This document shows, piece by piece, positions 3,401 through 62,135 of a stretch of DNA of 64,000 bases (the first letter of the stretch is position 1; the number at the start of each line of letters is the position of its first letter). Source of the DNA: Minisyncoccota bacterium (GTDB lineage Bacteria > Patescibacteriota > Minisyncoccia > Phycocordibacterales > XYD1-FULL-46-19); NCBI GenBank assembly GCA_041657405.1, contig JBBABX010000002.1, positions 42,726 through 106,725 of the forward strand. The letters are read 5' to 3'. Below the pieces are notes generated by a model, which did not search any database, had not been told where the DNA came from, and saw only the letters and a program-made list of their open reading frames with translations. Made by a program: the position numbers and the translations under genes.

Positions 3401-4879
3401 TTATTTATAAGCTGAATTAATTATAGCACTTTTTGAATACAAGATTCTTGTATCTGAAATATTTTTAAAACCAGTTTCTTTAAGTAGTTTTTTTTGTTCA
3501 TCAAAACTTAGCAATACTTTATCATTTTTTTTCTCTTCTTGTTTTATTAAATTATTATAATAAAACATTTTGATTATTGGAATAGAATACTTTATTGAAT
3601 CAGTAATAATTTTAATTAGACCTGACCTTTTTAGATCTTTTTTTATGTGTTCAATAAATATTCTATTTGGATTAAAGTTGTTATAAGGATTTGTTAAAAC
3701 TATTTTTCCTCCAGGTTTTAATACTCGATAAAACTCGCTAATAACCTTTGGTCTAAATTCATAAGGTATAGAATGTAATGTCAACATGCAAATTAACTTA
3801 TCGAACTCATTATCTGAAAACTTAAGATTAGTTAAATCGGATTTTATTAAGGTTGCTTCAGGGTCTTTTGATAAGTGAATTTTTAATGCGGTTTCAGAGT
3901 TATCTGCTCCGACCATTTCAATAGAATACTTTTCCTTAATACTTATTGATAGGATTCCAGTTCCTGAACCTGCATCTAAAATTCTATCGCCATTTTTTAT
4001 ATCTAGTTCCTTGATTACTTCTTCAGTCATTTCTTGATAAGGTATAGCCATTCCTATGACATCAAAGACTTTCATATAATTTGACCAAAAACTCTCATCC
4101 AAAGTATCTTTATTTGTAAAAGAGTAAATTATATCTTTATAAAAAGATACGAAAGAAAAAACAATGTAATACAGAAAGTTGTTTCTCCTCAACCATTTTT
4201 TAAACAAGTATTGTAATTGTGTAGGAGATTTTATCTTAATTTCATTTTGCCGCAAAAATTTAATATATAAATTAGCCACTTTTATTATTATCCCTGTCCC
4301 ATGTCGAGATTTTTTTTCCATTATGCTATCTATATCGCTGAGTTTTTCTGAATCATATATTATATGTTCAGGTTTTAGATTTTCTAACGCATCATTTTTA
4401 CCATCCCATACAACCAGTTCACTTTGTGGATTAAAATAACTTGTTTTCAAAGATAATTCTAAATCTAGGGAGGGATCACATTTGATCCATTTATTATTTA
4501 AAAAAACAAAACTGTATACATGGGATGACTTTTTGCTTATCTTCCTCTTGAGTATGGGGGGAACCACTGGCCCAAAGTATTCTTGTCCTTTTGTTTTTAA
4601 AACACCATAACCGGAGGGAATGTTTATGGATCTAAGCATTGTTACCAACAAATTTGTTTTATTGGTGCAAGTCCCCTCCTTTTCTTGGAGTGTTTCGCTT
4701 GCTTTTCTTTGCCACAAGCCAACTCGATACTCTATGTTGTCTCTAACCCAATTGAAAACAGCGATTGCCTTTTCTTGATCCGAAGAAAAGCCTTTTGTTA
4801 TCTCTTTTGCTTTTTCTGATATCTGAGGATTATTACAGTCACAAAACCTCGTTTCTTTTAAGTATTTTTCGAGTTCCAT
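3401..4879 (-). CDS. fusion protein: N-terminal transglutaminase-like cysteine protease domain plus C-terminal class I SAM-dependent methyltransferase
   Basis: The N-terminal half has a TGase-like Cys-His-Asp core (EGTCTNKTNLLVTMLRSINIPSGY ... HVYSFVFLNNKWIKCDPS). The C-terminal half has methyltransferase motif I (ILDAGSGTGILS) and the post-I/II region (VLKPGGKIVLTNP). Its stop codon sits 1 nt from the HK start. Confidence 0.7.
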   Translation of the reverse strand: MELEKYLKETRFCDCNNPQISEKAKEITKGFSSDQEKAIAVFNWVRDNIEYRVGLWQRKASETLQEKEGTCTNKTNLLVTMLRSINIPSGYGVLKTKGQEYFGPVVPPILKRKISKKSSHVYSFVFLNNKWIKCDPSLDLELSLKTSYFNPQSELVVWDGKNDALENLKPEHIIYDSEKLSDIDSIMEKKSRHGTGIIIKVANLYIKFLRQNEIKIKSPTQLQYLFKKWLRRNNFLYYIVFSFVSFYKDIIYSFTNKDTLDESFWSNYMKVFDVIGMAIPYQEMTEEVIKELDIKNGDRILDAGSGTGILSISIKEKYSIEMVGADNSETALKIHLSKDPEATLIKSDLTNLKFSDNEFDKLICMLTLHSIPYEFRPKVISEFYRVLKPGGKIVLTNPYNNFNPNRIFIEHIKKDLKRSGLIKIITDSIKYSIPIIKMFYYNNLIKQEEKKNDKVLLSFDEQKKLLKETGFKNISDTRILYSKSAIINSAYK

Positions 4880-15004: not shown

Positions 15005-15379
15005 TTATTTCTTTTCAACTTTACGTTTGCCCGAACCCATTGTCTTTTTCTTACCACGCAAAGTCCTAGCGTTAGTTTTGGTTCTTTGTCCGCGACAAGG
15101 CAAACCTCTTTGGTGTCTTGCTCCGCGGTAGCTTTTAATGTCACGTAAACGTTTAATGTTTGTGGACTTTTCTCTTTTAAGGTCTCCCTCTATTTTATAA
15201 ACTTCAATTAGCTTACGAATAACGTTTTCTTCTTCTTCAGTTAAGTCATCACTTTTTTTACCAAGATCAATTTTAGCTTCAGTTAAAATCTTTTGAGCTC
15301 TAGAAATACCAATGCCGTAAATAGCGGTTAAAGCGTATTCTATTCTTTTGTTTGGTAAAGTAATACCAGCGATTCTCAT
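15005..15379 (-). CDS. rpsM: 30S ribosomal protein S13
   Basis: [24 protein letters not shown] and a basic C-terminal tail. Confidence 0.95.
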
Positions 15380-15395
15380 ATCAAAATAAAATTAT

Positions 15396-15512
15396 TTAAG
15401 CTTGTTTTTGCTTATGGCGAGGTTTGCTTTTGCAAATAATGTAAAGATGGCCTCTTCTTTTGACCATTTTACATTGAGCACATCGTTTTTTAATTGTTGA
15501 CCTAACTTTCAT
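15396..15512 (-). CDS. rpmJ: 50S ribosomal protein L36 (38 aa; below the ORF-track length cutoff)
   Basis: I translated the minus strand by hand: [38 protein letters not shown]. This has the canonical C-x2-C...C...H zinc ribbon of L36 and sits between infA and rpsM as expected. Confidence 0.85.
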
Positions 15513-15523
15513 TTTTTTATTAA

Positions 15524-15775
15524 TTAACCCCTCCTCACGATTCGTCCTCGATTCCCATAGGGATCCATTACTATTTGCACTTTGTCTCCAACCATAACTC
15601 TAATGCGATTAATCCGCATTTTCCCCGCCAAGTAGACTAAAATTTCTTTATTTGAATCGTTGTCTAACTTGACTTTAAAAAGAGTGTTTGGCAGAGCCTC
15701 TATAACAACCCCTGAAACAATCTCCTCCTTTGGGGATGAGTCACTTTCGGGGTTTTTTTTATTGTCTGTTTTCAT
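15524..15775 (-). CDS. infA: translation initiation factor IF-1 (with a short N-terminal extension)
   Basis: S1-like core ...[41 protein letters not shown]... Confidence 0.9.
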
Positions 15776-15849
15776 TACTGAATTGACTTGAACATATTAA
15801 CAAATTTACACCTTAGAAGTCAAGGCTATTCGACTAATTTTGTTTTAAT

Positions 15850-18366
15850 TTACTCTACAATCTTTTTTTCGATCTTTATCTCTATTTTTGAATTGTCTTG
15901 AGGTACTTTTTTAATCCAAGGTGGTCGAAAAACAATATTTGCTTTAGTTATTTCCGAATATGAGGCAAAAACATTGTTATATTCATTTTTAGGAGTTTTT
16001 TTAAGATCTTCTTTTAGAGAATTTTCATCAAATTGCCAAATAACATAACCGATTCCTTGTAAATTAAAAGAAAATGAATTTAAATTTTCGGGATTTAAAT
16101 TTTCTTTATCTAATAAAGTAAAATTAAGTTCTTCTAAATTAACAACATCAACTTTGTCTTCCCCGGTCCATCCAGGAATGGCTTTGGCCAAATATTGGCT
16201 TAATTCAGCTTGATCAAACAAAATGCCGGTGGCGGTTATTTTGCCTCTAACGACCACCTTGTCTGAATCAACTTCTGTTGATGTAGCTATTTCAACAGAA
16301 AAACGAGTCAGGATAGCATCATCAAATAAAATATAATTTTCTGGAACCTGTTGTTTTATTTTTTGCACTATTTTTGCCTGCAGACTGCTTTTCATTGTTT
16401 CTTCTAAGGTAGACATATCATTTTCAGAAATTTTTGGTCTTTGCCCGACAAAACCACCACTAATTGGAGTTTTTGATTTGGCGATAATCTTGGCAAATTT
16501 TGGTGAACCAGTAAACCCAGGGATAGTAAAGTCAACTAAACCAAGATTGTGTTCCGGTCCGGCTTTATCAGCATAAACGGTTACTTCTAATTGTCCTGGC
16601 AAAGTCTCGCCGTTTTCTCCTTTGTGTGTACCCGGAATAGTTACCGGCTCAGCAATCCTATAAATATTGCCATTGGGCGCTTGGAAACGAGTTTTTTCTA
16701 CTAAGGGTTGAGAATTTGAACTATAATTATTTATTATTACAATTTGGCCACTAGCTTTTATGGCGACATTCTCGCTTCCTGACGCAGTTACCGAGGTTGA
16801 CTCTGATTCCTCAATATTTTCAGCTAAAACAAAATTTAAACCATTTTCTCCTTCTTTGGTGGCAATATAAGTATTAGAAACATCTAATTGTCCTTGTTTT
16901 GGTTGAATATTTACAATTGCTTTCGCAAAAATATTAGAAAAAACAAAACCGCCAATACTTATAACTAAAATTACAGACAATAAAATTAGCAGGCCACCCA
17001 AACGGAAACAATGTTTGGTTTTTGTTCTTGTTGTATTTAAAGATGGCATCGACTCTTTAGATTCTATTTTAGTTTTTTTGCCTCCAACTTCTGGAAATAT
17101 TTCACGAAGACTTTTTTTGTTTTTTACAATATCTTGCATGTTTTTTAAAGTATTAATAAAATAAAAATTACTTGGATTTTCATTTAGTTTATCACAAAAT
17201 AGCGCTTCGGCCAAAACAAAGGTGTTGGTAATCTGGCCAGGGCTATTTATAGGTTCATATGTTAGCATTTTTTTGTCAATGAAGCCAACAGAAAGATAAT
17301 TTCTGGGAGAAAGCAGGAAGTCTGAAAGATTAGTTTTTTTGATCCAATTGGCTAATAAAAAATCTGAGTCATCATAACCGATAAGATAAACGCGTTCAGG
17401 AATAAAAACTGTTTCGGCGATTTGATCAATGGTTTTTTGAAATAAATTTGACCAACTGATAAAAATTTTCTCTAAAGCTTGATTGGCACGAGTAGTCGCA
17501 ATTTGGCTAGTTTTTTTACCCATTACTAATTTCAGAAGTGATTCAGCTTCGGCTGGCACGGTTCCAGAAAGTTCGGCTAATTTTTTTATAATTTGACGAT
17601 GTCCAAAAGGAAAAGTGCGATGTTCAATCAAAATACCATCAACAATCACCATTATATCAGTAATATCCCCCGCGCTGTCTATTAACAAAAAATCTTTTTC
17701 ATTTGCTAGAAGTTTTTTAAAAATAGAGTAAGCGGTATAAGTAAAAGATTGGAATCGAACAGAAGTTTCGGGAAAAAAATTTTCTATAACATTTTTTAAA
17801 TAACCCAAAAGAGAAGCTGAGCCAATACTTAGATATTGATTGATTTCTATGTTATTAGCAATTTGGCCAGAAATCTTATCAATTTTATAACCATCTAAGA
17901 TTACAGACATGATTTCATTTTCTATAATGACAGAATAATCGTTTAAGATTTCAGGATAAAGGGAAGGGTGTCTTGTTATAAAATCTTTTGCTGTTTTTTG
18001 GCTAAGTTCATAAATTTTTTGGGGAGTAACGGAAGTCTTTTTATCTGAATGCCAAACAATATTTTTTGTTTGAGTTATAAAATAAGGCGATGATAAAAAA
18101 CAAAAAACCACTTCGGGTTTATAAGAATTATCTTTTAATGTTTTTAAAACTTTTTCTAATCCTTGATTAATTTCTTTGAAATAATCTTTAAAAGTTGTTG
18201 ATTTTTGCGGAGATAGATAAATTTGAGTAAAAAATAAAATACTAGAAGAAATACTGAATTTATTCTTCTGACCAGCTTTAAAAATAGCACCACTAATTTG
18301 ATCACTACCAATATCAATAAGTGCAACCAAATTATTCCCCCTTTTTTTGCGTGACAAAAAAGACAT
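15850..18366 (-). CDS. large bitopic protein: N-terminal actin-like (ASKHA; FtsA/PilM-like) ATPase-fold domain, single TM helix, ~350-aa extracytoplasmic domain
   Basis: The N-terminus has LVALIDIGSDQISGAIF (phosphate-1-like) and a second DxG-type motif (LLIDSAGDITDIMVIVDGIL). A hydrophobic segment follows at about aa 455-480 (LGGLLILLSVILVISIGGFVFSNIF). The rest is a beta-rich, Thr/Asn-containing C-terminal region. Confidence 0.5.
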   Translation of the reverse strand: MSFLSRKKRGNNLVALIDIGSDQISGAIFKAGQKNKFSISSSILFFTQIYLSPQKSTTFKDYFKEINQGLEKVLKTLKDNSYKPEVVFCFLSSPYFITQTKNIVWHSDKKTSVTPQKIYELSQKTAKDFITRHPSLYPEILNDYSVIIENEIMSVILDGYKIDKISGQIANNIEINQYLSIGSASLLGYLKNVIENFFPETSVRFQSFTYTAYSIFKKLLANEKDFLLIDSAGDITDIMVIVDGILIEHRTFPFGHRQIIKKLAELSGTVPAEAESLLKLVMGKKTSQIATTRANQALEKIFISWSNLFQKTIDQIAETVFIPERVYLIGYDDSDFLLANWIKKTNLSDFLLSPRNYLSVGFIDKKMLTYEPINSPGQITNTFVLAEALFCDKLNENPSNFYFINTLKNMQDIVKNKKSLREIFPEVGGKKTKIESKESMPSLNTTRTKTKHCFRLGGLLILLSVILVISIGGFVFSNIFAKAIVNIQPKQGQLDVSNTYIATKEGENGLNFVLAENIEESESTSVTASGSENVAIKASGQIVIINNYSSNSQPLVEKTRFQAPNGNIYRIAEPVTIPGTHKGENGETLPGQLEVTVYADKAGPEHNLGLVDFTIPGFTGSPKFAKIIAKSKTPISGGFVGQRPKISENDMSTLEETMKSSLQAKIVQKIKQQVPENYILFDDAILTRFSVEIATSTEVDSDKVVVRGKITATGILFDQAELSQYLAKAIPGWTGEDKVDVVNLEELNFTLLDKENLNPENLNSFSFNLQGIGYVIWQFDENSLKEDLKKTPKNEYNNVFASYSEITKANIVFRPPWIKKVPQDNSKIEIKIEKKIVE

Positions 18367-18435
18367 TGTTTAATTTATTATATTATAGAATTGCAAGAGA
18401 AAAAAAGAAAGAGTATTTGCTTGTATCTGAGTTTT

Positions 18436-20316
18436 TTATTCCAAAAGCGCTTTTATTCTTCTAATTCCTGCCGCAACAGCCTCTTCTTTTTTTATTTTGA
18501 AATGACCAAGTTCACCAGTACGCAAAACATGGGGCCCCCCGCAAAATTCTTTGGACCAAGCAGAATCAAGGTTGTCGCCAATGTAATAAATTGTCACTTT
18601 TTTGCCGTATTTTTCGCCAAAAAGGTGGTTGGCACCAGTTTTTTCCGCCTCGTCTTTTGGAAGTTCTACTTTATTGACTAGCAAATCAGCGGCAATTTTT
18701 TCGTTGACTAAATTCTCGATCGCCGTTTTTTGTTCCTCAGTTAGTTTGGCAGGATATGTAAAATCAAAACGCAAACGTTCATTAGTGATATTACTACCCT
18801 TTTGCGTTACCTCGGAACCTAAGATTTCTTTTAATGCTGCTTGCAAGAGATGGGTGGCAGTATGATATTTAATCACTTGTTTACTCTCATTAGCCAAACC
18901 ACCTTTGAATTTTTGGTCAGCACCGACACGAGATAGTTCTTGATGTTTTTGTAATTTGTTACCAAATTCCGTTTTTAGTTTTTCTTCTGCCTCTTTTGCT
19001 AATTTTAAACCGCGATTTTTGACTTCTTCCAAACCTAACTCAAGCGGAATACCAAAAGTCTGATAAAGATTAAAGAAAAACTCGCCTGACAAAACAGGGC
19101 TCGCAACTTCTTCTATTGCATCAATTGCCACATTTAGTTTGCCTGACAACTCTTTGTCAATAATCTTGATACCCGCCGCCAAGGTCTGGCGGAACTTCTC
19201 CTCTTCTTTTTTTAGTTCTGTGACAATTTTCTCTTTTTCAGTGGTCAATTCGGGATAAACATTTTCATATTTAGCAACAATCAAGTTTATTAAACGCTCG
19301 CTAAGATTATCGGGGACGCCTATTTTATTACTATAACGCATCGCGCGACGAATAATTCGACGTAAAACATAACCACGATCAGTATTGGTTGGTTTAACTC
19401 CAGCCGCAAACATAAAAACTGCTGTGCGAATATGGTCAGCAATAATTCTCTCAGCACGTTCGTCATTTTCTTGACTATGAGCGGAAATTTCTGCCAGTAA
19501 TAACGCAAAAATATCAGTTTGAAAGATGTTTATATTGTTCAAAACTGCGGTTGTGCGTTCTAAACCCATACCAGTATCAACATTCTTTTTTTCAAGTGGT
19601 TCGTAATCTCCATTTGTCGTCTTGTTAAATTCCATAAAGACATTATTCCAAATTTCAACCATACGAAAAGAATCTACTAGCTCTGTAAAACACTTATCCG
19701 GAAGAACATCTCCGGGGCAGGTGTCATAAAAAATCTCTGTGTCGCCACCACACGGACCATTTGCTCCCGCAATCCAAAAATTATCTTCTTGTCCTAGTGG
19801 AATAATTCGGACGTTTTCTCTTATTATTTCATCATTGCTGGCAATTTCAGCTTGCAAACCAACTTTGGCAAAAACTTCCTGCCAAATTTTTATAGATTCT
19901 TCATCATGAGGAATACCGTTTTCACCACGGAAAACTGTCACATAAAGACGTTTGGGATCCAAGCCTAAACCCTCTTTCTTGTCGGTTAAAAATTCAAAAC
20001 TCCAATTGATTGATTCTTTTTTAAAATAATCACCCAGCGACCAGTTACCCATCATTTCAAAAAAGGTTAAATGACGATTATCACCAACGTCATCAATGTC
20101 GTTAGTGCGGAGACATTTCTGGACATTAGTCAAACGATTGCCGGCCGGATGAGGTCGACCCAAGAGATAAGGAATTAGAGGTTGCATACCGGCGGTAGTA
20201 AAGAGAGTGCTTTCGTCTCCATAATCAGCAGGAATAAGAGAAGCTGAAGGAATTATTTTATGTCCCTTTTTTTCAAAAAAAGCCAAGAATTTTTGGCGAA
20301 TTTCTTCGGATGTCAT
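18436..20316 (-). CDS. alaS: alanyl-tRNA synthetase (catalytic plus editing domains; C-Ala domain absent)
   Basis: The N-terminus is FLAFFEKKGHKIIPSASLIP...FTTAGMQ. The editing domain has HTATHLL ... CGGPHV. It is only 626 aa, versus about 870 for full-length bacterial AlaRS. Confidence 0.95.
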   Translation of the reverse strand: MTSEEIRQKFLAFFEKKGHKIIPSASLIPADYGDESTLFTTAGMQPLIPYLLGRPHPAGNRLTNVQKCLRTNDIDDVGDNRHLTFFEMMGNWSLGDYFKKESINWSFEFLTDKKEGLGLDPKRLYVTVFRGENGIPHDEESIKIWQEVFAKVGLQAEIASNDEIIRENVRIIPLGQEDNFWIAGANGPCGGDTEIFYDTCPGDVLPDKCFTELVDSFRMVEIWNNVFMEFNKTTNGDYEPLEKKNVDTGMGLERTTAVLNNINIFQTDIFALLLAEISAHSQENDERAERIIADHIRTAVFMFAAGVKPTNTDRGYVLRRIIRRAMRYSNKIGVPDNLSERLINLIVAKYENVYPELTTEKEKIVTELKKEEEKFRQTLAAGIKIIDKELSGKLNVAIDAIEEVASPVLSGEFFFNLYQTFGIPLELGLEEVKNRGLKLAKEAEEKLKTEFGNKLQKHQELSRVGADQKFKGGLANESKQVIKYHTATHLLQAALKEILGSEVTQKGSNITNERLRFDFTYPAKLTEEQKTAIENLVNEKIAADLLVNKVELPKDEAEKTGANHLFGEKYGKKVTIYYIGDNLDSAWSKEFCGGPHVLRTGELGHFKIKKEEAVAAGIRRIKALLE

Positions 20317-20447
20317 GGTTTAATCTTAGCAAAACAGGGCGCTAAGCGCAAAAAGATGCAGACCAAACGCAGACTATGCAGACAAGACGTTTTTTCGTTA
20401 AGGAAAACTCCAACAAAACAAATCAGCTTTTATTTTAATTTTTCTCT

Positions 20448-21614
20448 CTATCTTATTATTCCTCCCCCCAAACAAAAATTGCCATCATAAATCACCAGCG
20501 ATTGTCCGGTGGGTTTTAGCTGAGGTTTATCAAAACAAAAAGTTGCTTCTCCGTTTTTTAAAGCGGTAAACTTTCCGGCTTGTAATGGTTGGCGATAGCG
20601 GAAACGCGCCTGGTACTTTGGACCGATAGTTGGCGTCTCGTTGATCCAGTTGGTTTCGCGAATGTCAAAATTTGTAGTCATTGCCCCGGTTTGATTTGGT
20701 TCAGAAGAAACGGTAATAGTGTTTTTTTCTATATCTTTGGCAATCACAAAGTATGGTTTTTGCTCGGGGGTTTTTTTCTCAATCGCAAAGCCGTGCCGTT
20801 CACCAATCGTAAAGAAAATGGCACCGTCGTGATAGCCAATGACTTCACCTGTCTCACTTAAAACGTCCCCTGTCTTAGACGGAATTTGCCCAGCCAAGAA
20901 TTTTTTGAAATCAATTTGCCCAATGAAGCAAAGACCTTGGCTGTCTTTTTTCTCGGCGTTGGGCAGATCAAACTTTTTGGCAAGTTTCCTTACTTCTTCT
21001 TTTTCATAACTGCCAACCGGAAACAAGATGTGCGTCAACTGCTCTTGTCTTAAATTCCACAAAAAATAAGTCTGATCTTTGTTCTTATCTTTGCTTAACG
21101 CCAGTTGACGAGTGTCGTCTGCTCCAATGCTCCTATTCTTTAACTTTTTTGACTTTTCACTTTTGACTTCTAACTTTTGATTTCTAACATTGATTTGTGC
21201 GTAATGTCCTGTTGCCACAAAATCCGCGCCCTGACTCATAACATAATTATAGAAGATTCCAAACTTAATTTGTTTATTGCACATAACATCAGGATTCGGG
21301 GTTCGGCCGGCACGATATTCACTCAAAAGATAATTCACCACTTTTTCTTTGTATTCTTTAGACGCATCAAAGGTGAGAAGTGGAATATCCAGATAAGCCG
21401 CTGCGCGCATAGCTTCACGTCTTTCTGTTCGCCAATTGCAAGCAATGCCCCAATCAGTTTCTGTATCATCAACCGGATCCCAAGGCTTGATATAAACCCC
21501 AACCACGTCACAACCAGTCTTCTTCAGTAAAGCCGCCGAGACAGAGCTATCCACCCCGCCCGACATCCCAACATAGACCGTCTTTCTGCCTTTTTTATTA
21601 TAACCCAAAGCCAT
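20448..21614 (-). CDS. mnmA: tRNA-specific 2-thiouridylase MnmA (with a low-complexity lysine-rich insert)
   Basis: It has the PP-loop (VYVGMSGGVDSSVSAALL), catalytic Cys motifs and a C-terminal beta-barrel. Confidence 0.9.
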   Translation of the reverse strand: MALGYNKKGRKTVYVGMSGGVDSSVSAALLKKTGCDVVGVYIKPWDPVDDTETDWGIACNWRTERREAMRAAAYLDIPLLTFDASKEYKEKVVNYLLSEYRAGRTPNPDVMCNKQIKFGIFYNYVMSQGADFVATGHYAQINVRNQKLEVKSEKSKKLKNRSIGADDTRQLALSKDKNKDQTYFLWNLRQEQLTHILFPVGSYEKEEVRKLAKKFDLPNAEKKDSQGLCFIGQIDFKKFLAGQIPSKTGDVLSETGEVIGYHDGAIFFTIGERHGFAIEKKTPEQKPYFVIAKDIEKNTITVSSEPNQTGAMTTNFDIRETNWINETPTIGPKYQARFRYRQPLQAGKFTALKNGEATFCFDKPQLKPTGQSLVIYDGNFCLGGGIIR

Positions 21615-21746: not shown

Positions 21747-22340
21747 TTGATGAAAACCAAAAACATGTTCTTTGTGATGGCTATTCTGACATTGTTCTCA
21801 ATTGGTGCTTTTGGAAGTTTTTATTGCCCCCCGTGCACTCCAGGAGACCCGGGAACTTGGGAGTATGTCAATCAAGACTTTATAAGTTTTGAGGGACAAA
21901 ATTGGGCCTTTAGCGGGGAATTCTTGGATTGGGATGTTAGGGGCCCTTTCTTTGAATTATTCTATCAGGATGGGCTTCTGGAACTTCACAGGGGGTTTTT
22001 CCCATCATTTCCTGAGCTTGAAATGGAAATTCCCTTTGGGGATTTTATAGTCTCTGGGTGGTCCCCGTCTGGCGGAAATCACTTAACGTTCAGACTAGAA
22101 GACTATTCAGTAGAGGGAAGCTCTTCACTGCTTCTTGGTTATAATGGCTGGCCTTGGCCAACAATTGTGGAAGATGAGCCACTACATTTAACAGGCGAGA
22201 CAAGCTATGCCTGTATAAGAATTGGTTCAGGGGACTTTCAATGTCCCCCGCCTCCCGAGATTGTCCCAGAACCGGCGACAATCTCGCTCCTAGCCTTTGG
22301 AATAGTCGGCCTAGCTGGTTTTCGGAGACTAAAAGCTTGA
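21747..22340 (+). CDS. secreted protein with a C-terminal PEP-CTERM sorting signal
   Basis: An N-terminal signal peptide is present. The C-terminus is VPEPATISLLAFGIVGLAGFRRLKA, i.e. PEP motif, hydrophobic helix, basic cluster. The gene is visibly more GC-rich than its flanks and has its own RBS (AAGGAGGAG). Confidence 0.6.
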   Translation: MMKTKNMFFVMAILTLFSIGAFGSFYCPPCTPGDPGTWEYVNQDFISFEGQNWAFSGEFLDWDVRGPFFELFYQDGLLELHRGFFPSFPELEMEIPFGDFIVSGWSPSGGNHLTFRLEDYSVEGSSSLLLGYNGWPWPTIVEDEPLHLTGETSYACIRIGSGDFQCPPPPEIVPEPATISLLAFGIVGLAGFRRLKA

Positions 22341-22432: not shown

Positions 22433-22987
22433 TTATTCACTTGTCATCAGCTTTTGGTAAATTTCATAAGTGACACGAGCATCCGCTAAGGCTGAATGAG
22501 CCTTTTTATTTCGTAAGTTAAAATGTTCCGCCAAAGCCCAAAGACTAAATTTGGGTGTCCAATCTTTGTGATAAAGTTTGGCAAAAGCCAAAGACAATAA
22601 ATCCAGTTTGTGATAATCAAGTTTTAAGTCAACATTTTCTCGTTGAGCCGCTAAACCCAAAAAGCCCCAATCAAAAGAAACATTGTGCGCCAACATAATT
22701 GAGCCCTCCACTTTTTGAGCCAAATCTTTTAAAATTTGTTTTAATTCACCAGCAAATAACCACTCTGATTCATTATAATGATTAATTCGTAACGCTTCTG
22801 GGTCGGCCGTTTCTAAATGTTGAGGTTTTACCTTATATTCAAATTCTTCAATTTCTCTAAATATGTGAGTGCCATCATTTGTGAAAGTATGTTCTGCTAT
22901 TACTCCGCCAATTTCTAAAACCTCATGTTTTTCAAGGTTTAGACCAGTCGTTTCTAAGTCGATAACTGCGATTTTTATTTTTTTCAT
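22433..22987 (-). CDS. DEDDh-family 3'-5' exonuclease (DnaQ/DNA pol III epsilon-like)
   Basis: Exo I (IAVIDLETTGL), Exo II (ML.AHNVSFDWGFL) and Exo III (H-x4-D: AHSALADA) motifs are present. Confidence 0.8.
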   Translation of the reverse strand: MKKIKIAVIDLETTGLNLEKHEVLEIGGVIAEHTFTNDGTHIFREIEEFEYKVKPQHLETADPEALRINHYNESEWLFAGELKQILKDLAQKVEGSIMLAHNVSFDWGFLGLAAQRENVDLKLDYHKLDLLSLAFAKLYHKDWTPKFSLWALAEHFNLRNKKAHSALADARVTYEIYQKLMTSE

Positions 22988-22989
22988 AA

Positions 22990-23994
22990 TTAGATATTGT
23001 ATTTTTTTCGATTAAGCTTGTGTTCATCAAAAGTTTCCGCATAATGCATGATGCCATCATGGTCAGACAAATAAAACCAATAATCGCTTTCTTCCGGTTG
23101 AATAGCTGCCAAAATAGCGTCCCAGCCTGGATTTCCGATAGGAGTTGGCGGCAAACCTTTATTGATATAGGTATTATAGGGTGATTTAGATTTTAAGTCA
23201 TCCTTAGTCAAATCAAAAGTTGTTTTGCCTAAATAATATTCAAAGGTGGCATCAACTTGTAAAGGCATTCCAGTAGCTATTCGTTTCCATAAAATTCCAG
23301 AAACTAGTCGTCGATCTTTTTCGGTTTTAACTTCTCGGTCAATAATTGATGCCATTATAATTATTTCGTCCATTGTTTTTTCTGTCGCTTGAATGTCTTT
23401 TTCTAGAGTTTTAATTCGATTATCAAAATTATTCCTCATTGCTTTTATCATATCGTTCGGTCCATCTAATCTAGAAAAAAAGTAAGTATCGGGAAATAAA
23501 TAGCCTTCCCATTTAGTGCCTAACTTTATGAAAGATTCTTCTTCAAAATTGGGAATTTTTAGACTAATAGCCTTGGCAATTTTAGAGACTGAGGCGCCTT
23601 CAAAAAAAGTTATGCGATAAGGCTCATGACCCAAAAGACAATTAGTCAATCGCAAAGCAATTGTTAAAACGGAAATTGGTTGGTTAAAATAATAACTGCC
23701 AGTTTGAATTTTTTTCTGTCCGCCGAGTAAGAAAATAAAAGCCTTAAAAGTTTTTGGAGAAAGAATTAAACCTTGTTGGTATAAATTTTCAGCTACATCA
23801 CTTGCTGTTTGACCATTTTCCACTTGAAAATAAATTTCTGTGGGAAAAATGTAGGGTGGAAAAACAAACATCAAATTAAACAAAATAAAGACTACCGCAA
23901 AAACACAAAGAGTATACAGCCCCAAATTAACGATTTTTTGTTTCTTATCCTTGTTATCTTCAGGGTTTGGAAAATTCGTCTTAATCTTGAACAT
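22990..23994 (-). CDS. mltG: endolytic murein transglycosylase MltG (YceG family)
   Basis: It has an N-terminal TM anchor and YceG-like core motifs (YLFPDTYFF, ...PPTPIGNPG...). Confidence 0.85.
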   Translation of the reverse strand: MFKIKTNFPNPEDNKDKKQKIVNLGLYTLCVFAVVFILFNLMFVFPPYIFPTEIYFQVENGQTASDVAENLYQQGLILSPKTFKAFIFLLGGQKKIQTGSYYFNQPISVLTIALRLTNCLLGHEPYRITFFEGASVSKIAKAISLKIPNFEEESFIKLGTKWEGYLFPDTYFFSRLDGPNDMIKAMRNNFDNRIKTLEKDIQATEKTMDEIIIMASIIDREVKTEKDRRLVSGILWKRIATGMPLQVDATFEYYLGKTTFDLTKDDLKSKSPYNTYINKGLPPTPIGNPGWDAILAAIQPEESDYWFYLSDHDGIMHYAETFDEHKLNRKKYNI

Positions 23995-25382: not shown

Positions 25383-26402
25383 TTAAACTAAGTAATAATT
25401 TCCACTTTCATCACGTTTGAAATACTTAGGATTTTGAAGATTGACAAGAATTGTGTTTTCTTTGACAAAACGTTCCTTTAAAACACGGTTGATAATTTCA
25501 TTTTTGGGCAAATTACCCGTCTCTTTAAGAATTTTAACCACAACATCAATAACAGTTCCGCTTGAATATCCCCATTCAGTTAAGGCATATAAACCACGAC
25601 CTACCAAAACAAATCGGCTGTCTTTTATCAATTCATTATGGCAAGTGGCAGGGTGGGCTTTTTTGCCAAAAGTTTGAATAATTCTATTCGCCACTTCAGT
25701 AAAATGCAAAGGAGTTTTGTTTTGCCGTAAAACAAGATAAGCATAATCGCGAATACCACGCATACGAATATTGGGTGAGCTATTTAATCCCCATTCTCCC
25801 AATGGATTTTTGGCCAACAATTTACAAATTTTTAACCATTCTCGCGCGAAATTTTCTACTTGAGGGTCATCTGAAAGATCATCAAGTTCTTTAACAAATT
25901 TAGAAATAAGTTCTGGTTCAGAGATTAAATCTCGTTCAGAAAAACCAGCACAAAGTTTGCGCAAAGATTGATGCACCCTAGTGGCCATATCTTGATTAAC
26001 AGTCCAACGATGATAGAATTCTTCATCTTCTTTGATTCTAACAAAAGCATCAGAAACTACCAATAAGAAATGAATATGGTTTTGGATTGATTCGTCTTTA
26101 GAGAAAGATTCTAAAAATGCTTGTTCGTGGACGACACCGCCATGTTCTTGCATTAAATTTTTAAGCTGTTCAAAAGTGCTAAGCGCTGAATCGTAAACTT
26201 TTGATTTTTTTATCAAATTTAACCCAAAATTTTCTATTTGTCGAACTCTTTCACGAGTGATCTTATACTCATTACCGATTGCTTCCAAGGTCAATCTTTT
26301 GCTGGTTTTACCTAGACCATAACGCTTTGTCAGAATGTCACGATTTCGTTCTGGCAAAATATTCAACAATTTTTTGGTAATTTCTTTTGGTTTTATAGAC
26401 AT
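25383..26402 (-). CDS. DNA-binding protein: N-terminal sigma-70 region-4-like HTH plus C-terminal HARE-HTH winged helix
   Basis: The N-terminus RYGLGKTSKRLTLEAIGNEYKITRERVRQIE is a region-4-type HTH. The C-terminus PLHFTEVANRI...HPATCHNELIKDSRFVLVGRGLYALTEWGY matches the HARE-HTH signature (TPEAT...RF.RVGRGL..L.EW). Confidence 0.55.
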   Translation of the reverse strand: MSIKPKEITKKLLNILPERNRDILTKRYGLGKTSKRLTLEAIGNEYKITRERVRQIENFGLNLIKKSKVYDSALSTFEQLKNLMQEHGGVVHEQAFLESFSKDESIQNHIHFLLVVSDAFVRIKEDEEFYHRWTVNQDMATRVHQSLRKLCAGFSERDLISEPELISKFVKELDDLSDDPQVENFAREWLKICKLLAKNPLGEWGLNSSPNIRMRGIRDYAYLVLRQNKTPLHFTEVANRIIQTFGKKAHPATCHNELIKDSRFVLVGRGLYALTEWGYSSGTVIDVVVKILKETGNLPKNEIINRVLKERFVKENTILVNLQNPKYFKRDESGNYYLV

Positions 26403-26499: not shown

Positions 26500-29400
26500 T
26501 CAAATATTTGTAGGAGCCAAAACAAAATTTATTAAACGATCTTTTACGTAGAGAGTTTTTTTAATAGAACGATCCTCTAGCCAGCATTTTATATTTGAGT
26601 TTTCTTTAGCTGTTTCAATTATCTCTTTTTCACTAGCGTTAGTTGCTACAATAATTGTGCCTCTAACCTTACCATTAACCTGAACAACGATTTTCAATTC
26701 TTGTTTGATTATTTTTTGTTCATCATAGATTGGCCAAGATGACAAATGAATGGATGTCTTATGCCCAAACCTAAACCATAATTCCTCAGTTAAATGAGGA
26801 GCAAAGGGCGCCAATAATTTGAGCATATTTTCAAAATCTGCTTGGTTAATTGCCAACTGTTTTTCCATTTCATTAGTTAATATCATCAAGGATGATATGG
26901 CTGTATTAAAGGCAAAATTAGAAATATCAGTGCTCACTTTTTTGATAGTTTGATGAATCTGACAAACTAAAGAACTTTCTTCTTGGAAAACTTTTACTTT
27001 CTCGGCTAAACGCCATACTTTTTCTAAAAAGCGCCGCGCACCAATCATATTCTCGGTTTGCCAAGAAGCCCCCGCCTCAAAAGGACCCATAAACATTTCA
27101 TAAACACGCAAAGTGTCCGCGCCATATAATTTGACCATTTCATCCGGGTTAATAACATTCCCCCAACGTTTAGACATTTTGCGACCGTCATTACCAGAAA
27201 TTAAACCTTGATTCTTTAATTTAGCAAAAGGTTCTTTCTCACTTACCAAACCAAGATCAAATAAAAATTTGTGCCAAAAACGAGCATAAATCAAATGTCT
27301 CGTTGCATGTTCGGTGCCACCAACATACATATCCACTTCTCGCCAGTATTTTTCTTTATCTTTAGAAACTAATGTTTCTTCATTTTGAGGATCCATAAAA
27401 CGAAGGTAATACCAAGAAGAACCTGCCCATTGAGGCATTGTATTTGTTTCTCGTCTAGCTGGGGCACCACAAATTGGGCATTTAACGTTAACCCATCTAG
27501 AGATACTGGCCAAAGGTGATTCGCCAGTATTTGTTAGGGTATAACTTTTTACTTTGGGTAATTTAATTGGTAATTTTTCTTTAGGTACTGGCACCACGCC
27601 ACATTTCTCGCAATGAATTATTGGGATCGGTTCACCCCAATAACGTTGACGTGAGAAGACCCAATCACGAAGTTTATATTTAACCACTTGGCGACCTCTG
27701 ACAAATTTGGTTATGGCTTTTTTTGCTTTTTCACTGGATAACCCTGAAAACTTGGGTCCAGCGTTGACTAAAATTCCAGGGTCAGTATGAATTATCAAAT
27801 CTTTATACCATTCATTTTTCGCCAATAAAGACCAGGGGGTTATGGATTCCTGTTTTTTTTCTTTAGAAAACTGCTCAATCTGTTTGTTTACCTCCGTGAC
27901 TGTTTCAGGCGACAAAACAATCCGCGCCATTTTACCTTTTCGGTCTTTAAACAAAAAAATTATACTATCACCAACATATTCGTTCCAATAGCCGGGTGAA
28001 AGTTTATTCCTGATCAATTTTTCGTAAACTGGCAATTTTTTAGCAGATAAAATTAACAGCCTGTCGCCGTTAGGTTTTTTCTCAAATATCTTAGCACCAA
28101 CTTCTTCTAATTCGCTATCAGAAATTTGGTTAGCACCAGTAAGATAACTTTTTATCGGCGCATTTTTCTTGGCAATACTTTGAATAACAGGTAAATTATA
28201 TTTTTGGGCAAAAGCAAGATCACGCAAATCATGCGCCGGCACCGCCATCACCGCACCAGTGCCATAATCAGGCAAAACATAATCAGCGATAAAGACGGGG
28301 ATTTCTCTGCCGTTAGAAGGATTAATAGCAGATAAACCTTTCAGCTCAACTCCGGTCTTTTCCCTGTCCTCGGTTGTTCGTTCTATCTCACTTTGTTTTC
28401 TTGTCTGTTTTTGGTATTTTTCAATATTCAGTTTGTTGTCAAAGATTGATAAATTTTTAACAACAAATTGGTGTTCTGGCGATAATACCAAATAAGTAGC
28501 CCCAAACAAAGTATCTGCGCGAGTAGTGAAAATTTTTATAGTATCCAAAATATTTTCCAAGACAGTTGGTTCTACGGTACCACAAGTATGGGTTTTTTTA
28601 GCTTCAAATTTAATTAGATTCCCACCTAAATTTTTTTGTAATTTTTCTCCTTGTTGTTCGTCTATCAAAAAATCTTTTTGGTCTTCTAAAATTACTATCT
28701 CTCCGGCATTTTTTTTGATTTTAGAAAAATTAAATTTCCAATTTACCAAAATACTAACTTCTGGCCTTTCTTTATCTTTAAATTTTGGTTCCATCAAACC
28801 AGAAACTAGAACAAATTTTTTGATTGGATTTTTTAAACGTTCCAAGATTCGCAAACCAACAACTGTCCCCAAACTATGCCCAATCAAAACAGTATTTTCA
28901 TCAAAAATGATATTTTTCATCACAAATTCTACTTGGTTAGCCACATTTGGCAAAAAAGGATTAGGCAATTGTGGCACTATTACTTGATGACCACGTTTTT
29001 CCAATTCTCGCTTAAGCCATGGGAACCAACAGTATTTAGGTCCACTTTTATAACCGTGTAAAATAACAAATTTTAATTTTTTAGTTTTTAATTCAAAATT
29101 TATCTCTATTCCCTCACTACGACCAATCCAATTACGTTGAGATTCCTTAATGGATTCTGGCCAGGCTAAATCGGTTAAATCTTCAAGTAAGCGGTCAGCA
29201 TAATCAGTAATTTTTAATACCCATTGACGCATTGGCCTTTTTTCCACCTCTGAACCACAACGCTCGCATTTGCCATTCTCCAGATCTTCATTAGCAAGTC
29301 CTGTTTTACAAGATGGACACCAATTAATCGGCTCATAGGATTGATACGCCAAACCTTTTTGGAAAAGTTGCAAAAAAATCCATTGCGTCCACTTATAATA

Positions 29401-29841
29401 TTTTGGATCTGTTGTATTTATTTCACGAGACCAGTCATAATCAAGCCCAATAATTTTTAATTGTTCTTTGAAATGTTTGATATTTTTCTTGGTCGCAATT
29501 TCGGGATGAATTTTATTTTTGATAGCGTAATTTTCGGTCGGTAAACCAAAAGCATCCCAACCCATTGGGTGAAGAACATTAAAACCACTCATTCGTTTAT
29601 AACGAGAATAGATATCTGTTCCAATATAACCCTTGGGATGCCCAACATGCAGACCCTCTCCTGAGGGGTATGGAAACATATCTAAAATGTAACACTTATC
29701 TTTTTTTGAGTTATCTTTAGTTTGATAAATTTTGGATTGACGCCATTCTTTTTGCCACTTTGATTCTATCTTTTTATGGTCATATTTATTAGAAATTTTG
29801 GCTTTGAAAACTTTCTTCTTAGACGTCATTTTAAGATACAT
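26500..29841 (-). CDS. leuS: leucyl-tRNA synthetase carrying an inserted RBBP9/YdeN-type serine hydrolase domain
   Basis: Class I HVGH (HVGHPKGY) and KMSKR motifs are present. The CP1 editing domain (TTRADTLFGATY), anticodon-binding and C-terminal domains are present. An extra ~180 aa lies between WIGRSEG and the editing domain: ILHGYKSGP...TVLIGHSLGTV...FVLVSG...HTCG. Confidence 0.95.
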   Translation of the reverse strand: MYLKMTSKKKVFKAKISNKYDHKKIESKWQKEWRQSKIYQTKDNSKKDKCYILDMFPYPSGEGLHVGHPKGYIGTDIYSRYKRMSGFNVLHPMGWDAFGLPTENYAIKNKIHPEIATKKNIKHFKEQLKIIGLDYDWSREINTTDPKYYKWTQWIFLQLFQKGLAYQSYEPINWCPSCKTGLANEDLENGKCERCGSEVEKRPMRQWVLKITDYADRLLEDLTDLAWPESIKESQRNWIGRSEGIEINFELKTKKLKFVILHGYKSGPKYCWFPWLKRELEKRGHQVIVPQLPNPFLPNVANQVEFVMKNIIFDENTVLIGHSLGTVVGLRILERLKNPIKKFVLVSGLMEPKFKDKERPEVSILVNWKFNFSKIKKNAGEIVILEDQKDFLIDEQQGEKLQKNLGGNLIKFEAKKTHTCGTVEPTVLENILDTIKIFTTRADTLFGATYLVLSPEHQFVVKNLSIFDNKLNIEKYQKQTRKQSEIERTTEDREKTGVELKGLSAINPSNGREIPVFIADYVLPDYGTGAVMAVPAHDLRDLAFAQKYNLPVIQSIAKKNAPIKSYLTGANQISDSELEEVGAKIFEKKPNGDRLLILSAKKLPVYEKLIRNKLSPGYWNEYVGDSIIFLFKDRKGKMARIVLSPETVTEVNKQIEQFSKEKKQESITPWSLLAKNEWYKDLIIHTDPGILVNAGPKFSGLSSEKAKKAITKFVRGRQVVKYKLRDWVFSRQRYWGEPIPIIHCEKCGVVPVPKEKLPIKLPKVKSYTLTNTGESPLASISRWVNVKCPICGAPARRETNTMPQWAGSSWYYLRFMDPQNEETLVSKDKEKYWREVDMYVGGTEHATRHLIYARFWHKFLFDLGLVSEKEPFAKLKNQGLISGNDGRKMSKRWGNVINPDEMVKLYGADTLRVYEMFMGPFEAGASWQTENMIGARRFLEKVWRLAEKVKVFQEESSLVCQIHQTIKKVSTDISNFAFNTAISSLMILTNEMEKQLAINQADFENMLKLLAPFAPHLTEELWFRFGHKTSIHLSSWPIYDEQKIIKQELKIVVQVNGKVRGTIIVATNASEKEIIETAKENSNIKCWLEDRSIKKTLYVKDRLINFVLAPTNI

Positions 29842-42088: not shown

Positions 42089-44769
42089 TTAAGACTTTTG
42101 CTTTTTTTTATTCAAACTTAATGCACGTTTCAAATATTTAGCAGTTTGCGAAGCACTCACATAAGCTACTTCTTCTGGTGTGCCTACTGCTACCACTTGA
42201 CCGCCAGCGTCTCCACCATCGGGTCCCATATCAATTATGTAATCAGCGTTTTTTATGACCTCCATATTATGTTCAATTATTAAAACGGTGTTGCCTTTTT
42301 CTACTAATTTTTGCAAAATTTCAATCAATTTTTTAACATCTTCATAATGCAAGCCAATGGTCGGCTCGTCTAAAATGTAAATTGTTTTTTCAGTTTGCAA
42401 TCGATAAAGTTCTGATGAAATTTTAACCCGTTGAGCTTCCCCCCCAGACAAAGAGGTCGCAGTTTGGCCTAATTCTAAATAGCCCAAACCGACATCATTA
42501 AGAGCCTTAAGACGATCATAAATAGCGGGGATATCAACAAAGAAATCTAACGCCTCTTCTATTGTCATTTTTAAAACTTCATAAATATTTTTTTTCTTAT
42601 ATTTTACCTCTAAGGTGTCCTTTTCATAACGATGACCACCACAAACGTCACAAGGCACAAAAACTGTTGGCAAAAAATGCATTTCTACCGCTATTTCACC
42701 GTTACCCTGACAAGCTTCACAACGACCACCTTTAACATTAAAAGAAAATCTGGCCGGATTCCAACCACGAGCACGTGCCAAAGTAGTGGAGGCAAATAGG
42801 TTGCGGATAAAAGTAAAAGCACCAGTATAAGTAGCGGGATTAGAACGAGGCGTTCGACCAATCGGAGATTGATCTATCATAATCACCCTGCTTAGCTTTT
42901 CTGAACTCGTAAATTCTTTACAATTAAAAATTTCATTAGTGCGATAACGACGTTCAAGTCGTCCTTGTAAATTTTTATATAAAATTTCATAAACAAAAGA
43001 GGATTTCCCCGAACCAGAAACTCCAGTAACGGCAATCATCCGTCCTAATGGCACATCTACATTTAAATTTTTGACATTAAAAATATTACCGCCACGAATT
43101 TTAATAATACCCTTATCGTTTTGACATCTTTTAGACAACAGGGAGATAATTTTATCTCCTCTCAAATAATCTACCGTTAATGAGCCAAAATTATTTTTAG
43201 GAGCTGTGAGTAATTTTTCAGTCCAACCAGCTACCACAATGTGTCCGCCATGCACACCAGCCCCTGGTCCGATATCAACTAAATAATCCGAAGCAAAAAT
43301 TGTGTCTTCATCATGTTCCACGACTAAGATAGAATTGCCCAAATCGCGTAACTCTAATAAAGTTTTTATTAATCTATCGTTGTCACGCGCGTGTAATCCA
43401 ATCGTCGGTTCGTCTAAAACATAAAGAGTGCCTACTAAACGAGAGCCTAGCTGTGAAGCCAAGCGAATACGTTGAGCCTCGCCGCCAGAAAGAGTGTCTG
43501 CTCGTCGGTCCAAAGTAATATAACCAAGTCCTACATCGTTAAGAAATTTCAAACGTGATTGTATTTCACGCAATAAGACTTCTGAGATTGCTTTTTCTTT
43601 GACTGTTAATTTTAATAAAGTAAAAAATTCAAACGCTTCTTTGATTGACAAATTTGTCAATTGAACAATATTCAAACCAGAATTTTCTTTTTTTGTTTTT
43701 GCATTATTAGCAATATTTTGTTTTGTTTTGGTGGAACCAATAAAAACTTGTAGGGATTCTCGCCTCAAACGTGCCCCAAACACTCTAAACATGGTTCCTT
43801 GCCAAACAAGTGCTTCGTGCCAAGACCATGACAAACTGGGCAAGCGCCATATGGTGAGTTGAAAGAAAACAGCCGTGGTTCAATTTCTGGAAAAGAAAAA
43901 CCATCATTGGGACAAGCAAATTTGGCCGACAACAAAAATTCTTCATTATTAAATTGTATTCTAATCAAACCATCAGATTCCTTGAGCGCTCTTTCTATCG
44001 CCTCAAACAACCGTTCGTTAACAGCATCCGTAATGGCTTGGTCGATCTCCTTTTTTAATTTAGAACCTTTTTTACCAAGTTCTAAGCTAGTCAGTTCAAT
44101 TTCATCAATCAAAACATCAATATTATGTTTTTTTGTCTTAGCCATTAGTATTTGCTCGCGTAATTTTTTACGAACTCCATCAATTTTTACTTCCGAATAT
44201 CCTTTTTCCAATAAATCATAGAGCAATTGATAGTATTCCCCCTTACGTCCACGAACAACCGGTGCATAAATTTCTACCACCTTGGTAGTCGGATGTTTGA
44301 TAATTTCCTCTTTTACAAAATTAATAATTTCTTCATTTGAAAGTTTTTCTATTTTAGTACCACAAATAGGGCAATGTGGATGCCCAATTCGAGCGTAAAG
44401 CACGCGTAAATAATCATAAATTTCAGTGATCGTCGCAACAGTAGAACGGGGATTGTGAGAACGAGATTTTTGGTCAATAGAAATTGCCGGCGACAAACCA
44501 GAGATATCTTCCACATCTGGTTTGGGTAATTGTTTTAAAAATTGTCTAGCATAAGCCGATAATGATTCTACATAACGACGTTGGCCTTCGGCAAAAATTG
44601 TATCAAAAGCTAATGATGACTTACCAGAACCAGAAAGACCGGTAAAAACCACCAGTTTATTTCTAGGAATTTCTAAATCAATATTTTTGAGATTATGTGT
44701 GCGTGCGCCTTTAATTTTTATTTTATCTTCCATAAAATTATTTATACAATCAAACTCCCCATGATTCAA
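42089..44769 (-). CDS. uvrA: excinuclease ABC subunit A, currently split over two overlapping frames (43765-44769 N-terminal part; 42089-43843 C-terminal part)
   Basis: The N-terminal ORF has the first ABC Walker A ([23 protein letters not shown]) and first zinc finger (CPVCHGLG...CLEC). The downstream frame continues with (G)[11 protein letters not shown] signature [12 protein letters not shown], a second Walker A (GVSGSGKSS) and a second LSGGEAQRV. The two frames join at a CCCC (plus-strand) homopolymer at 43775-43778, and a single extra G on the coding strand would restore one ~918-aa UvrA. Confidence 0.85.
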
Positions 44770-62013: not shown

Positions 62014-62135
62014 TGCAAAACGATGTTTGAGATGAGCTTTTTGAGCTTCAAAGTCAGGGGCCTAGAAAGCTCGTCTCAAACTGAGGCAAGTCGTTCCGAG
62101 CGATCTCGGTAAATCAGAAAATGGAGATGATGTCG

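Follow-up and report, generated by a model that had tools for sequence, protein, structure and literature searches.

We analysed a 64,000-nucleotide (nt) stretch of a Minisyncoccota contig (JBBABX010000002.1; hereafter the window) from an ultra-small, uncultured member of the Paceibacterota, and found that an open reading frame (ORF) on its minus strand (15850-18366) encodes an 838-residue protein that is a genuine fusion of two genes kept separate in most relatives. The N-terminal half is a cytoplasmic actin-like domain of the FtsA/PilM type. The C-terminal half is bitopic, with a short peptide predicted to be cytoplasmic, a single transmembrane (TM) helix and a large outer domain. On balance, we favor the reading that the protein joins in one chain what is otherwise a membrane-spanning module of two proteins, conserved across Paceibacteria/Parcubacteria, and that this module works as a peptide-tethered actin-like protein. 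The family, more than this fused copy, is the object of interest.

The ORF begins with ATG and lies on the minus strand where the sequence-only reading of this DNA had placed it. The surrounding DNA has 33-35% guanine plus cytosine (GC), and the window as a whole stays at 32-41% nearly throughout. An open frame of 838 codons at 33-35% GC is not due to chance. Three assemblies made independently of one another (ENA ERZ27247350, Logan SRR18595299 and NCBI GCA_964388635.1) each contain the identical 838-residue protein. Its NCBI entry is a hypothetical protein from a Candidatus Paceibacterota metagenome-assembled genome, and its JGI label begins 'cell division A...'. Five full-length homologues, at 72, 70, 56, 56 and 37% identity, keep the fused architecture together with the in-frame linker, so that the layout described from the letters alone is conserved in close relatives. 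In all three fused homologues whose contigs were examined, the gene is located directly upstream of infA.

To find more distant relatives, we searched 1.84 billion representative proteins with a profile of six fused proteins and obtained 8818 relatives. The best 150 of the 8818 are mostly proteins of ~430 residues, many of which start exactly at profile position 410. Separate proteins of ~385-416 residues cover profile positions 1-400, and fused relatives are only few. The typical split pair consists of a gene for a ~390-residue actin-like protein and an adjacent gene for a ~435-residue bitopic protein, which starts at the equivalent of M410. Look-ups of the split C-terminal proteins (Paceibacterota, Giovannonibacteria and others) returned the order alaS, ~394-residue gene, ~435-residue gene, infA, rpsM, and the two genes of a Giovannonibacteria pair (locus L007, 4833-6017 and 6001-7311) overlap by 17 nt.

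We also scanned a collection of one genome per species with a 12-sequence profile, which gave 504 relatives, and analyzed the best 80 loci. Their titles name Paceibacterota, Vogel-, Campbell-, Kaiser-, Taylor-, Lloyd- and Zambryskiibacteria, Parcubacteria and Patescibacteria, and many bear the generic, unverified label 'uncultured Candidatus Saccharibacteria'. The halves are separate and adjacent in 68 of the 80 loci and fused in two (L013 and L019). No tblastn match to the N-terminal half was obtained in the other ten; five of these are cut by a contig end upstream of the C-terminal gene, and three have a divergent ORF of 379-425 codons at that place. The alaS gene upstream and infA/rpsM downstream were found almost everywhere in the 80 loci. 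The sequence-only reading had remarked that such parts are normally separate proteins. This proved correct for the family, as most relatives are two adjacent genes and the second opens with a conserved peptide, as PilN and FtsN do.

The spacing of the split genes points to how the fusion arose. Spacer length could be measured in 40 split loci, with the C-terminal start placed from its motif; the median is 44.5 nt, and in two pairs the genes overlap by 4 nt. Among the closest split relatives, spacers measure 26-41 nt, compared with a linker of 39 nt (13 residues, 397-409) in the window protein. This match suggests that read-through of the spacer is the simplest origin of the fusion. Furthermore, two other fused proteins (P0014 and P0029) have split proteins as their nearest relatives, and the clade of the window protein is likewise set apart from the P0006/P0007 clade by split proteins. 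Thus, fusion took place at least three times. The sequence-only reading had also raised the case of two genes merged by a sequencing error. Most homologues are indeed two genes, and the junction coincides exactly with the start methionine of the second one. An artefact of sequencing or assembly is nevertheless excluded by the three independent assemblies, by the fused orthologues with their conserved in-frame linker, by the two further fused species in the species-level set and by the independent fusions elsewhere in the family, and we give it practically no weight.

The features of the fused protein, all on the minus strand, are as follows.

15850..18366, minus strand: whole coding sequence of the fused actin-like/bitopic protein, 838 residues plus stop (ORF list; identical protein in three assemblies; fused homologues at 37-72% identity)
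17179..18336, minus strand: cytoplasmic FtsA/PilM-type actin-fold domain, residues 11-396 (AlphaFold2 model and Foldseek against the PDB; sub-threshold PF14450)
18304..18318, minus strand: phosphate-1 motif I17-D18-I19-G20-S21 (conservation in 22 members; aligns with 'IDIGS' of Thermotoga maritima FtsA)
17818..18081, minus strand: inserted beta-alpha-beta-beta unit, probably at the FtsA/PilM 1C position, residues ~96-183 (order of secondary structure in the model)
17656..17691, minus strand: phosphate-2 motif FLLIDSAGDITD, residues 226-237, family consensus FLLIDIGGExTD (within the PF14450 match)
17140..17178, minus strand: fusion linker NPSNFYFINTLKN, residues 397-409, absent from split relatives (ends and starts of split proteins; predicted local distance difference test score, pLDDT, below 50)
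17083..17139, minus strand: conserved peptide MQDIVKNKKSLREIFPEVG, predicted cytoplasmic, residues 410-428, the proposed tether motif (N-terminus of split bitopic proteins)
17002..17082, minus strand: basic low-complexity juxtamembrane linker, residues 429-455 (length and sequence vary among homologues; positive charge; low pLDDT)
16924..17001, minus strand: single TM helix, residues ~456-481 (Kyte-Doolittle hydropathy; AlphaFold2 helix)
15853..16923, minus strand: predicted extracytoplasmic domain, residues 482-838, 357 residues (AlphaFold2 model of the C-terminal half)
16504..16758, minus strand: GlxA/Baseplate_J-type beta-barrel within the outer domain, residues 537-621 (sub-threshold match to the GlxA beta barrel)

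To determine the fold of the N-terminal half, we modelled residues 1-445 with AlphaFold2 from a 22-sequence alignment. The model has a pLDDT of 81.5 and a predicted template modelling score of 0.80, and is confident over residues 11-396. In a Foldseek search of the PDB, FtsA entries took ranks 1-17 (~420 aligned columns, TMt 0.60-0.68), with T. maritima FtsA (1e4g, E=2.5e-18) at the top and E. coli FtsA (7q6d) at TMt 0.68. PilM came next, from Myxococcus xanthus (3jc8), Pseudomonas aeruginosa (5eoy) and Thermus thermophilus (2ych, TMt 0.69), and the FtsA and PilM matches together span E-values from 1e-18 to 1e-12. Generic ASKHA kinases, Ppx and ParM scored far lower, and no GspL/EpsL chain was among the top 50 matches. 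The actin fold that had been proposed from phosphate-binding motifs in the letters was therefore recovered in the model, over the N-terminal ~400 residues, and both quoted motifs are present (ALIDIGSDQISGAIF at residues 15-29 and LLIDSAGDITDIMVIVDG at residues 227-244).

Searched against PDB sequences, the profile of the N-terminal family matched PilM of M. xanthus at E=2.3e-5 and FtsA of T. maritima at E=2.1e-4; the whole protein searched with phmmer gave only chance matches to haemoglobin at E about 1. The only Pfam/NCBIfam matches on the N-terminal half are TIGR01174 (20.2 bits against a cut-off of 175.85) and PF14450 (22-24 bits against 31.8), both sub-threshold. The PF14450 match lies at residues 228-278 of the window protein and recurs, again below threshold, in 14 of the 22 family members. 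PilM_2 (PF11104) did not match the window protein even at E<=10. A distant member in locus L089, which is homologous to the N-terminal family (hhalign probability 97.8%, E=1e-12), scored 29.2 bits on PilM_2, just above the cut-off of 27. Together with the FtsA and PilM matches in structure and profile, this places the N-terminal family between FtsA and PilM.

The nucleotide-site motifs for phosphate (DIGS and DxxGxxTD) are intact in the family. Across the 22 members D18 is invariant and I19, G20 and S21 are at least 90% conserved; in phosphate-2, T236 and D237 are invariant and F226 and D230 at least 90% conserved. Other conserved positions are the invariant G159-Y160, F252-P-x-G255 and W305. 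From its topology, the unit at residues ~96-183 is probably a 1C-type subdomain, and the profile alignment with FtsA continues through it. The helical region at residues 256-317 may likewise correspond to a 2B-type subdomain, as read from its position. Split N-terminal proteins finish within a few residues of the last core helix (the equivalent of residue ~396) and so have no C-terminal amphipathic helix of the FtsA type. In the window protein, what comes after the actin core is the linker, then the peptide and a true TM helix.

The peptide MQDIVKNKKSLREIFPEVG opens the C-terminal half and is near-invariant in the six fused proteins, its M410 being profile position 410. The split C-terminal proteins share the N-terminal consensus M-x-K-N-I-V-Q-D-V-V-P-P-E-[KR]-R-S-I-R-[DN]-I-P, of which the core QDVVPPxKRSIRDIP reads MQDIVKNKKSLREIFP in the window protein. 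Kyte-Doolittle hydropathy revealed only one hydrophobic segment in the whole protein (residues ~453-484, peak 2.76 at 458-476), and AlphaFold2 placed a helix at residues 457-479 (48-70 of the C-terminal half). The 15 residues before the segment carry a net charge of +4 and those after it a net charge of 0, which predicts an N-in/C-out orientation with a cytoplasmic N-terminal half and an extracytoplasmic C-terminal half. The single helix followed by an outer domain of ~350 residues, as the sequence-only reading described it, is borne out by this segment, its charge bias and the modelled helix. In the split C-terminal proteins, the peptide is followed by a basic stretch that varies between proteins, so that in those listed the TM helix, taken as the most hydrophobic 19 residues, begins ~40-105 residues into the chain.

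A distant bitopic lineage (P0223, P0220, P0219 and P0216; 568-667 residues) carries an N-terminal domain of ~85 residues, beginning MAKIINLKPEEEITSVIERLWETGEEEIFLVAPKGS, in place of the RSIRDIP peptide. A long acidic linker follows this domain, and the 138-residue N-terminal fragment of P0220 that spans it had no Pfam match.

We modelled residues 410-838 from a 79-sequence alignment to examine the outer domain, which occurs in thousands of Patescibacteria proteins. The mean pLDDT is 90.5, and most 10-residue blocks reach 90-98 from residue 51 of the C-terminal half on. Its best fold match is GlxA of Streptomyces lividans (E=3e-7), and phage baseplate wedge proteins are also among the best, including Mu gp47 and Milano gp29 (~113-115 aligned columns, 3-5 Å, 24% identity). 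The GlxA beta barrel (PF21110) was matched by 61 of the 79 relatives and Baseplate_J (PF04865) by eight of the 79 at E<0.01; PF04865 had no match in the window protein. PHROG 6, a baseplate wedge family, matches a stretch of 60-85 residues; E is 1.9e-4 for the window protein, and relatives reach 1.6e-10. The barrel is the only part clearly common to the outer domain and GlxA/Baseplate_J. A PilN/PilO-like outer domain, as the sequence-only reading suggested, was not recovered: structures of PilN, PilO, GspL/M, FtsQ and MreC were absent from the listed top matches. Matches of the outer-domain profile to RSV-F (E 0.001-0.9, ~70 residues) were judged spurious, having no support from the fold search.

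The most conserved positions of the outer domain lie in the barrel (KASGxIxIxN, TRF, GxIYR, VxVxADxxGxxYN, DFTIPGF), with others in a GGFxG loop and a C-terminal PxW. They include no His or Cys, which suggests that the sequence of this domain holds no catalytic signature. With Baseplate_J wedges (the Mu gp47, P1 BplA and T4 gp6 type) and S. lividans GlxA, the window protein has only the barrel in common. The C-terminal half could in principle be a baseplate remnant (Baseplate_J) of a prophage or contractile injection system, unrelated to the actin-like domain. We regard this as very improbable. Its surroundings contain no tail or baseplate genes, its place between alaS and infA does not change from species to species, a search of 2.9 million viral contigs returned no relative, and the domain comes with a TM anchor and the short peptide. 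The present protein thus differs from the wedges in being membrane-anchored, cellular, encoded in a housekeeping locus and free of baseplate partners and viral relatives, and from GlxA also in lacking its catalytic propeller.

The genomic setting bears on what the module does. The fused gene lies directly downstream of alaS and directly 5' of the block infA-rpmJ-rpsM-rpsK-rpsD-rpoA-rplQ-rplM-rpsI, all on the minus strand. The sequence-only reading had put the gene at the end of this alpha-operon block; it actually stands directly upstream of it. The neighbors named here are as follows.

18436..20316, minus strand: alaS, conserved upstream neighbor (tRNA-synt_2c and tRNA_SAD in orthologous loci; tblastn in most of the 80 loci)
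15524-15775, minus strand: infA, which opens the alpha-operon block with rpmJ; conserved downstream neighbor (follows the module in nearly all related loci)
15396-15512, minus strand: rpmJ (L36, 38 residues), between infA and rpsM (under the size cut-off of the ORF list)

With rpmJ present, though under the ORF-list cut-off, the alpha-operon block is complete. In a scan of 15300-20500, promoter-like sites were at chance level and terminator-like sites reached only ~2x the expected number. The scan found no terminator between the 838-residue ORF and infA, and a single TTGACT-18-TAATAT site in the same interval. Neither the 64-kb window nor any related locus examined contained fts genes or genes for a pilus (pilB, pilC, pilT, pilins, prepilin peptidase), so that the neighborhood did not bear out either the divisome or the pilus option of the sequence-only reading. 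Upstream of alaS (22433-23994, minus strand) are genes for MltG/YceG, a DnaQ-like exonuclease and mnmA. MltG/YceG, a peptidoglycan enzyme, is encoded at 22990-23994 (minus strand) and also at 1-570 of the Giovannonibacteria locus L007, in which the order YceG, mnmA, alaS, module, infA recurs. Its presence nearby is a weak hint toward envelope growth or division.

The fused protein could be the FtsA of these organisms, that is, a Z-ring anchor in which the amphipathic helix was exchanged for a bitopic anchor, here fused, with an FtsN/FtsQ-like outer domain directed towards the wall. Structurally, FtsA entries (1E4G, 4A2A, 7Q6I) match best, both phosphate motifs can be aligned with those of FtsA, and the only Pfam/NCBIfam matches on the N-terminal half are PF14450 and TIGR01174. 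The JGI label 'cell division A...', the housekeeping locus and the occurrence of the pair in nearly all related loci examined also speak for this reading. There is a precedent for the partner as well: in PilN and FtsN, both bitopic, a short N-terminal segment on the cytoplasmic side binds the IA-IC cleft of PilM and FtsA, respectively (PMC7613929). However, identity to FtsA is 12-15%, scores are far below the TIGR01174 and PF14450 cut-offs, and the module has no C-terminal amphipathic helix. It lies outside a dcw/ftsZ context in all loci seen, never beside ftsZ or dcw genes, and the window clade has lost the adenosine GG motif. The family profile fits PilM at least as well, and its distant member passes the threshold of PilM_2 and not that of FtsA. 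Transcripts of ftsA have been reported from Patescibacteria, but the gene meant is not specified in that paper. We therefore consider it unlikely, although worth keeping in view, that the module is FtsA itself.

A second alternative is a PilM-PilN(-PilO)-type alignment subcomplex of a type IV or competence pilus, fused as GspL is. PilM is among the top structural and profile matches and has, like the present N-terminal half, an FtsA/PilM-type actin fold with no membrane helix of its own (e.g. 2YCH, 5EOU). The gene order is also alike, with the actin-like gene directly upstream of a partner that has a short N-terminal peptide, one TM helix and an outer domain; the N-terminal protein lacks an amphipathic helix, and type IV pili are common in Patescibacteria according to the literature. 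There are also differences. The N-terminal motif of PilN is of the INLLP type, to which the peptide of this family (..[KR]RSIR[DN]IP.., here ..RSIRDIP..) is unrelated. At three times the size, the outer domain contains a GlxA/Baseplate_J barrel instead of a small ferredoxin-like fold. The locus is alaS-infA with no pilus genes around it, neither in the 64-kb window nor in the related loci, and PilM_2 does not match the window protein. A pilus subcomplex is thus improbable in our view.

GspL/EpsL of type II secretion is a natural single chain of an actin-like, a TM and a periplasmic domain. It resembles the window protein in the covalent order of cytoplasmic actin-like domain, one TM helix and outer domain. 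The window protein differs in retaining the phosphate motifs and the helical region at residues 256-317, in the fold of the outer domain and in the lack of gsp or secretion genes nearby. Of the sequence-only proposal of a fused PilM-PilN-like or divisome element, the layout stands; the scores below FtsA thresholds, the missing PilM_2 match, the missing amphipathic helix and the missing PilN-type motif speak against membership of either system. By this comparison the module may be likened to PilM-PilN and FtsA-FtsN in its working, yet it falls below the curated thresholds of FtsA and PilM and lacks features that define them.

We return to the peptide-tethered module. The strict adjacency of the genes, their occasional overlap, repeated fusion, the partner peptide and an actin-like part with no membrane helix make a tether of the PilM-PilN/FtsA-FtsN type the best reading. 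In split species, the peptide of the bitopic protein would dock on the actin-like protein, as PilN does on PilM and FtsN on FtsA at the IA-IC cleft, and would thereby recruit it to the membrane. An ATP-dependent state or self-association of the actin-like protein could then be coupled, in either direction, to how the outer domains are arranged. In the lineage of the window, read-through of the ~40-nt spacer would have made the link covalent, which would fix the stoichiometry at 1:1. Folds, topology, the split and fused states, synteny and the motif were read from sequences and models, and from them we infer peptide docking, ATP dependence and a cellular role. Our best guess for this role is scaffolding of envelope growth or division, which we favor over pilus assembly because the locus is a fixed housekeeping one and almost every locus examined has the pair.

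Several observations weigh against this reading. Two loci, L064 (~3650-3950) and L084 (~3600-3790), have a motif-bearing C-terminal gene right after alaS with no room for an N-terminal gene, which is either elsewhere in the genome or lost. In the distant bitopic lineage, the peptide is swapped for the ~85-residue domain (L089 6001-7707; L090 6001-7965); an actin-like gene lies upstream in L089, and none does in L090. Together, the loci free of an N-terminal gene and the peptide swap suggest that the peptide may have another or an additional partner. The adenosine-motif 'GG' is absent in the window clade (VYLIGYDDSD; family consensus YLxxD), so that nucleotide binding may be altered; the distant family member retains GGG. 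AlphaFold2 left the peptide undocked in cis, with pLDDT 32-40 over residues 397-445 and six sequences covering the region. A peptide left disordered in the model neither supports nor refutes docking. Finally, we found no description of the gene pair, and no evidence for its function, in the literature searched.

More tentatively, and with a little less than even confidence, we propose that the N-terminal half and its split orthologues represent a third branch of the FtsA/PilM actin family, specific to Patescibacteria, and that with the bitopic partner and its baseplate-like barrel they make up an undescribed membrane-spanning machine. If so, this machine would be distinct from canonical FtsA and PilM, and might be a membrane anchor of the divisome, a wall organizer or a surface organizer for host contact. 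The Paceibacteria/Parcubacteria are very abundant and poorly understood, and how they build their envelope and divide is almost unstudied. The pair is widespread in them and uncharacterized, annotated only as 'hypothetical' and without a dedicated Pfam family. That the halves have fused repeatedly in nature argues that a protein of the actin-like ATPase fold and a surface-exposed domain are physical partners. The pair thus offers a concrete, testable entry point (peptide-cleft binding, polymerization, localization) into the cell biology of the candidate phyla radiation (CPR). It would also extend the principle of an actin-like protein plus a bitopic peptide to a type of outer domain that shares its barrel with phage baseplate wedges.

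Other features of the window were noted. UvrA appears as two overlapping ORFs within 42089-44769 (minus strand), an N-terminal one with UvrA_inter (43765-44769) and a C-terminal ABC one (42089-43843), which reflect either a frameshift or a genuine split. The segment 62001-64000 has a GC fraction of 0.50, compared with ~0.35 elsewhere, and ORFs overlap in three frames at 62121-62927. It had no Rfam match; foreign DNA, gene decay or a chimeric assembly could each account for it.

The only plus-strand gene in its stretch (21747-22340) encodes a 197-residue protein with a PEP-CTERM sorting motif (E=1e-4) at its C-terminus, which is not expected of a CPR bacterium presumed to be monoderm; by eye, its N-terminal hydrophobic stretch resembles a putative signal peptide. 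The leucyl-tRNA synthetase (26500-29841, minus strand; 1113 residues) carries an alpha/beta-hydrolase insertion (Ser_hydrolase/Abhydrolase_1) at residues ~258-410, between the catalytic core and the editing domain. A 339-residue protein (25383-26402, minus strand) combines an N-terminal Sigma70 region 4 with a HARE-HTH domain at residues 219-277, which is unusual for a sigma-like factor.

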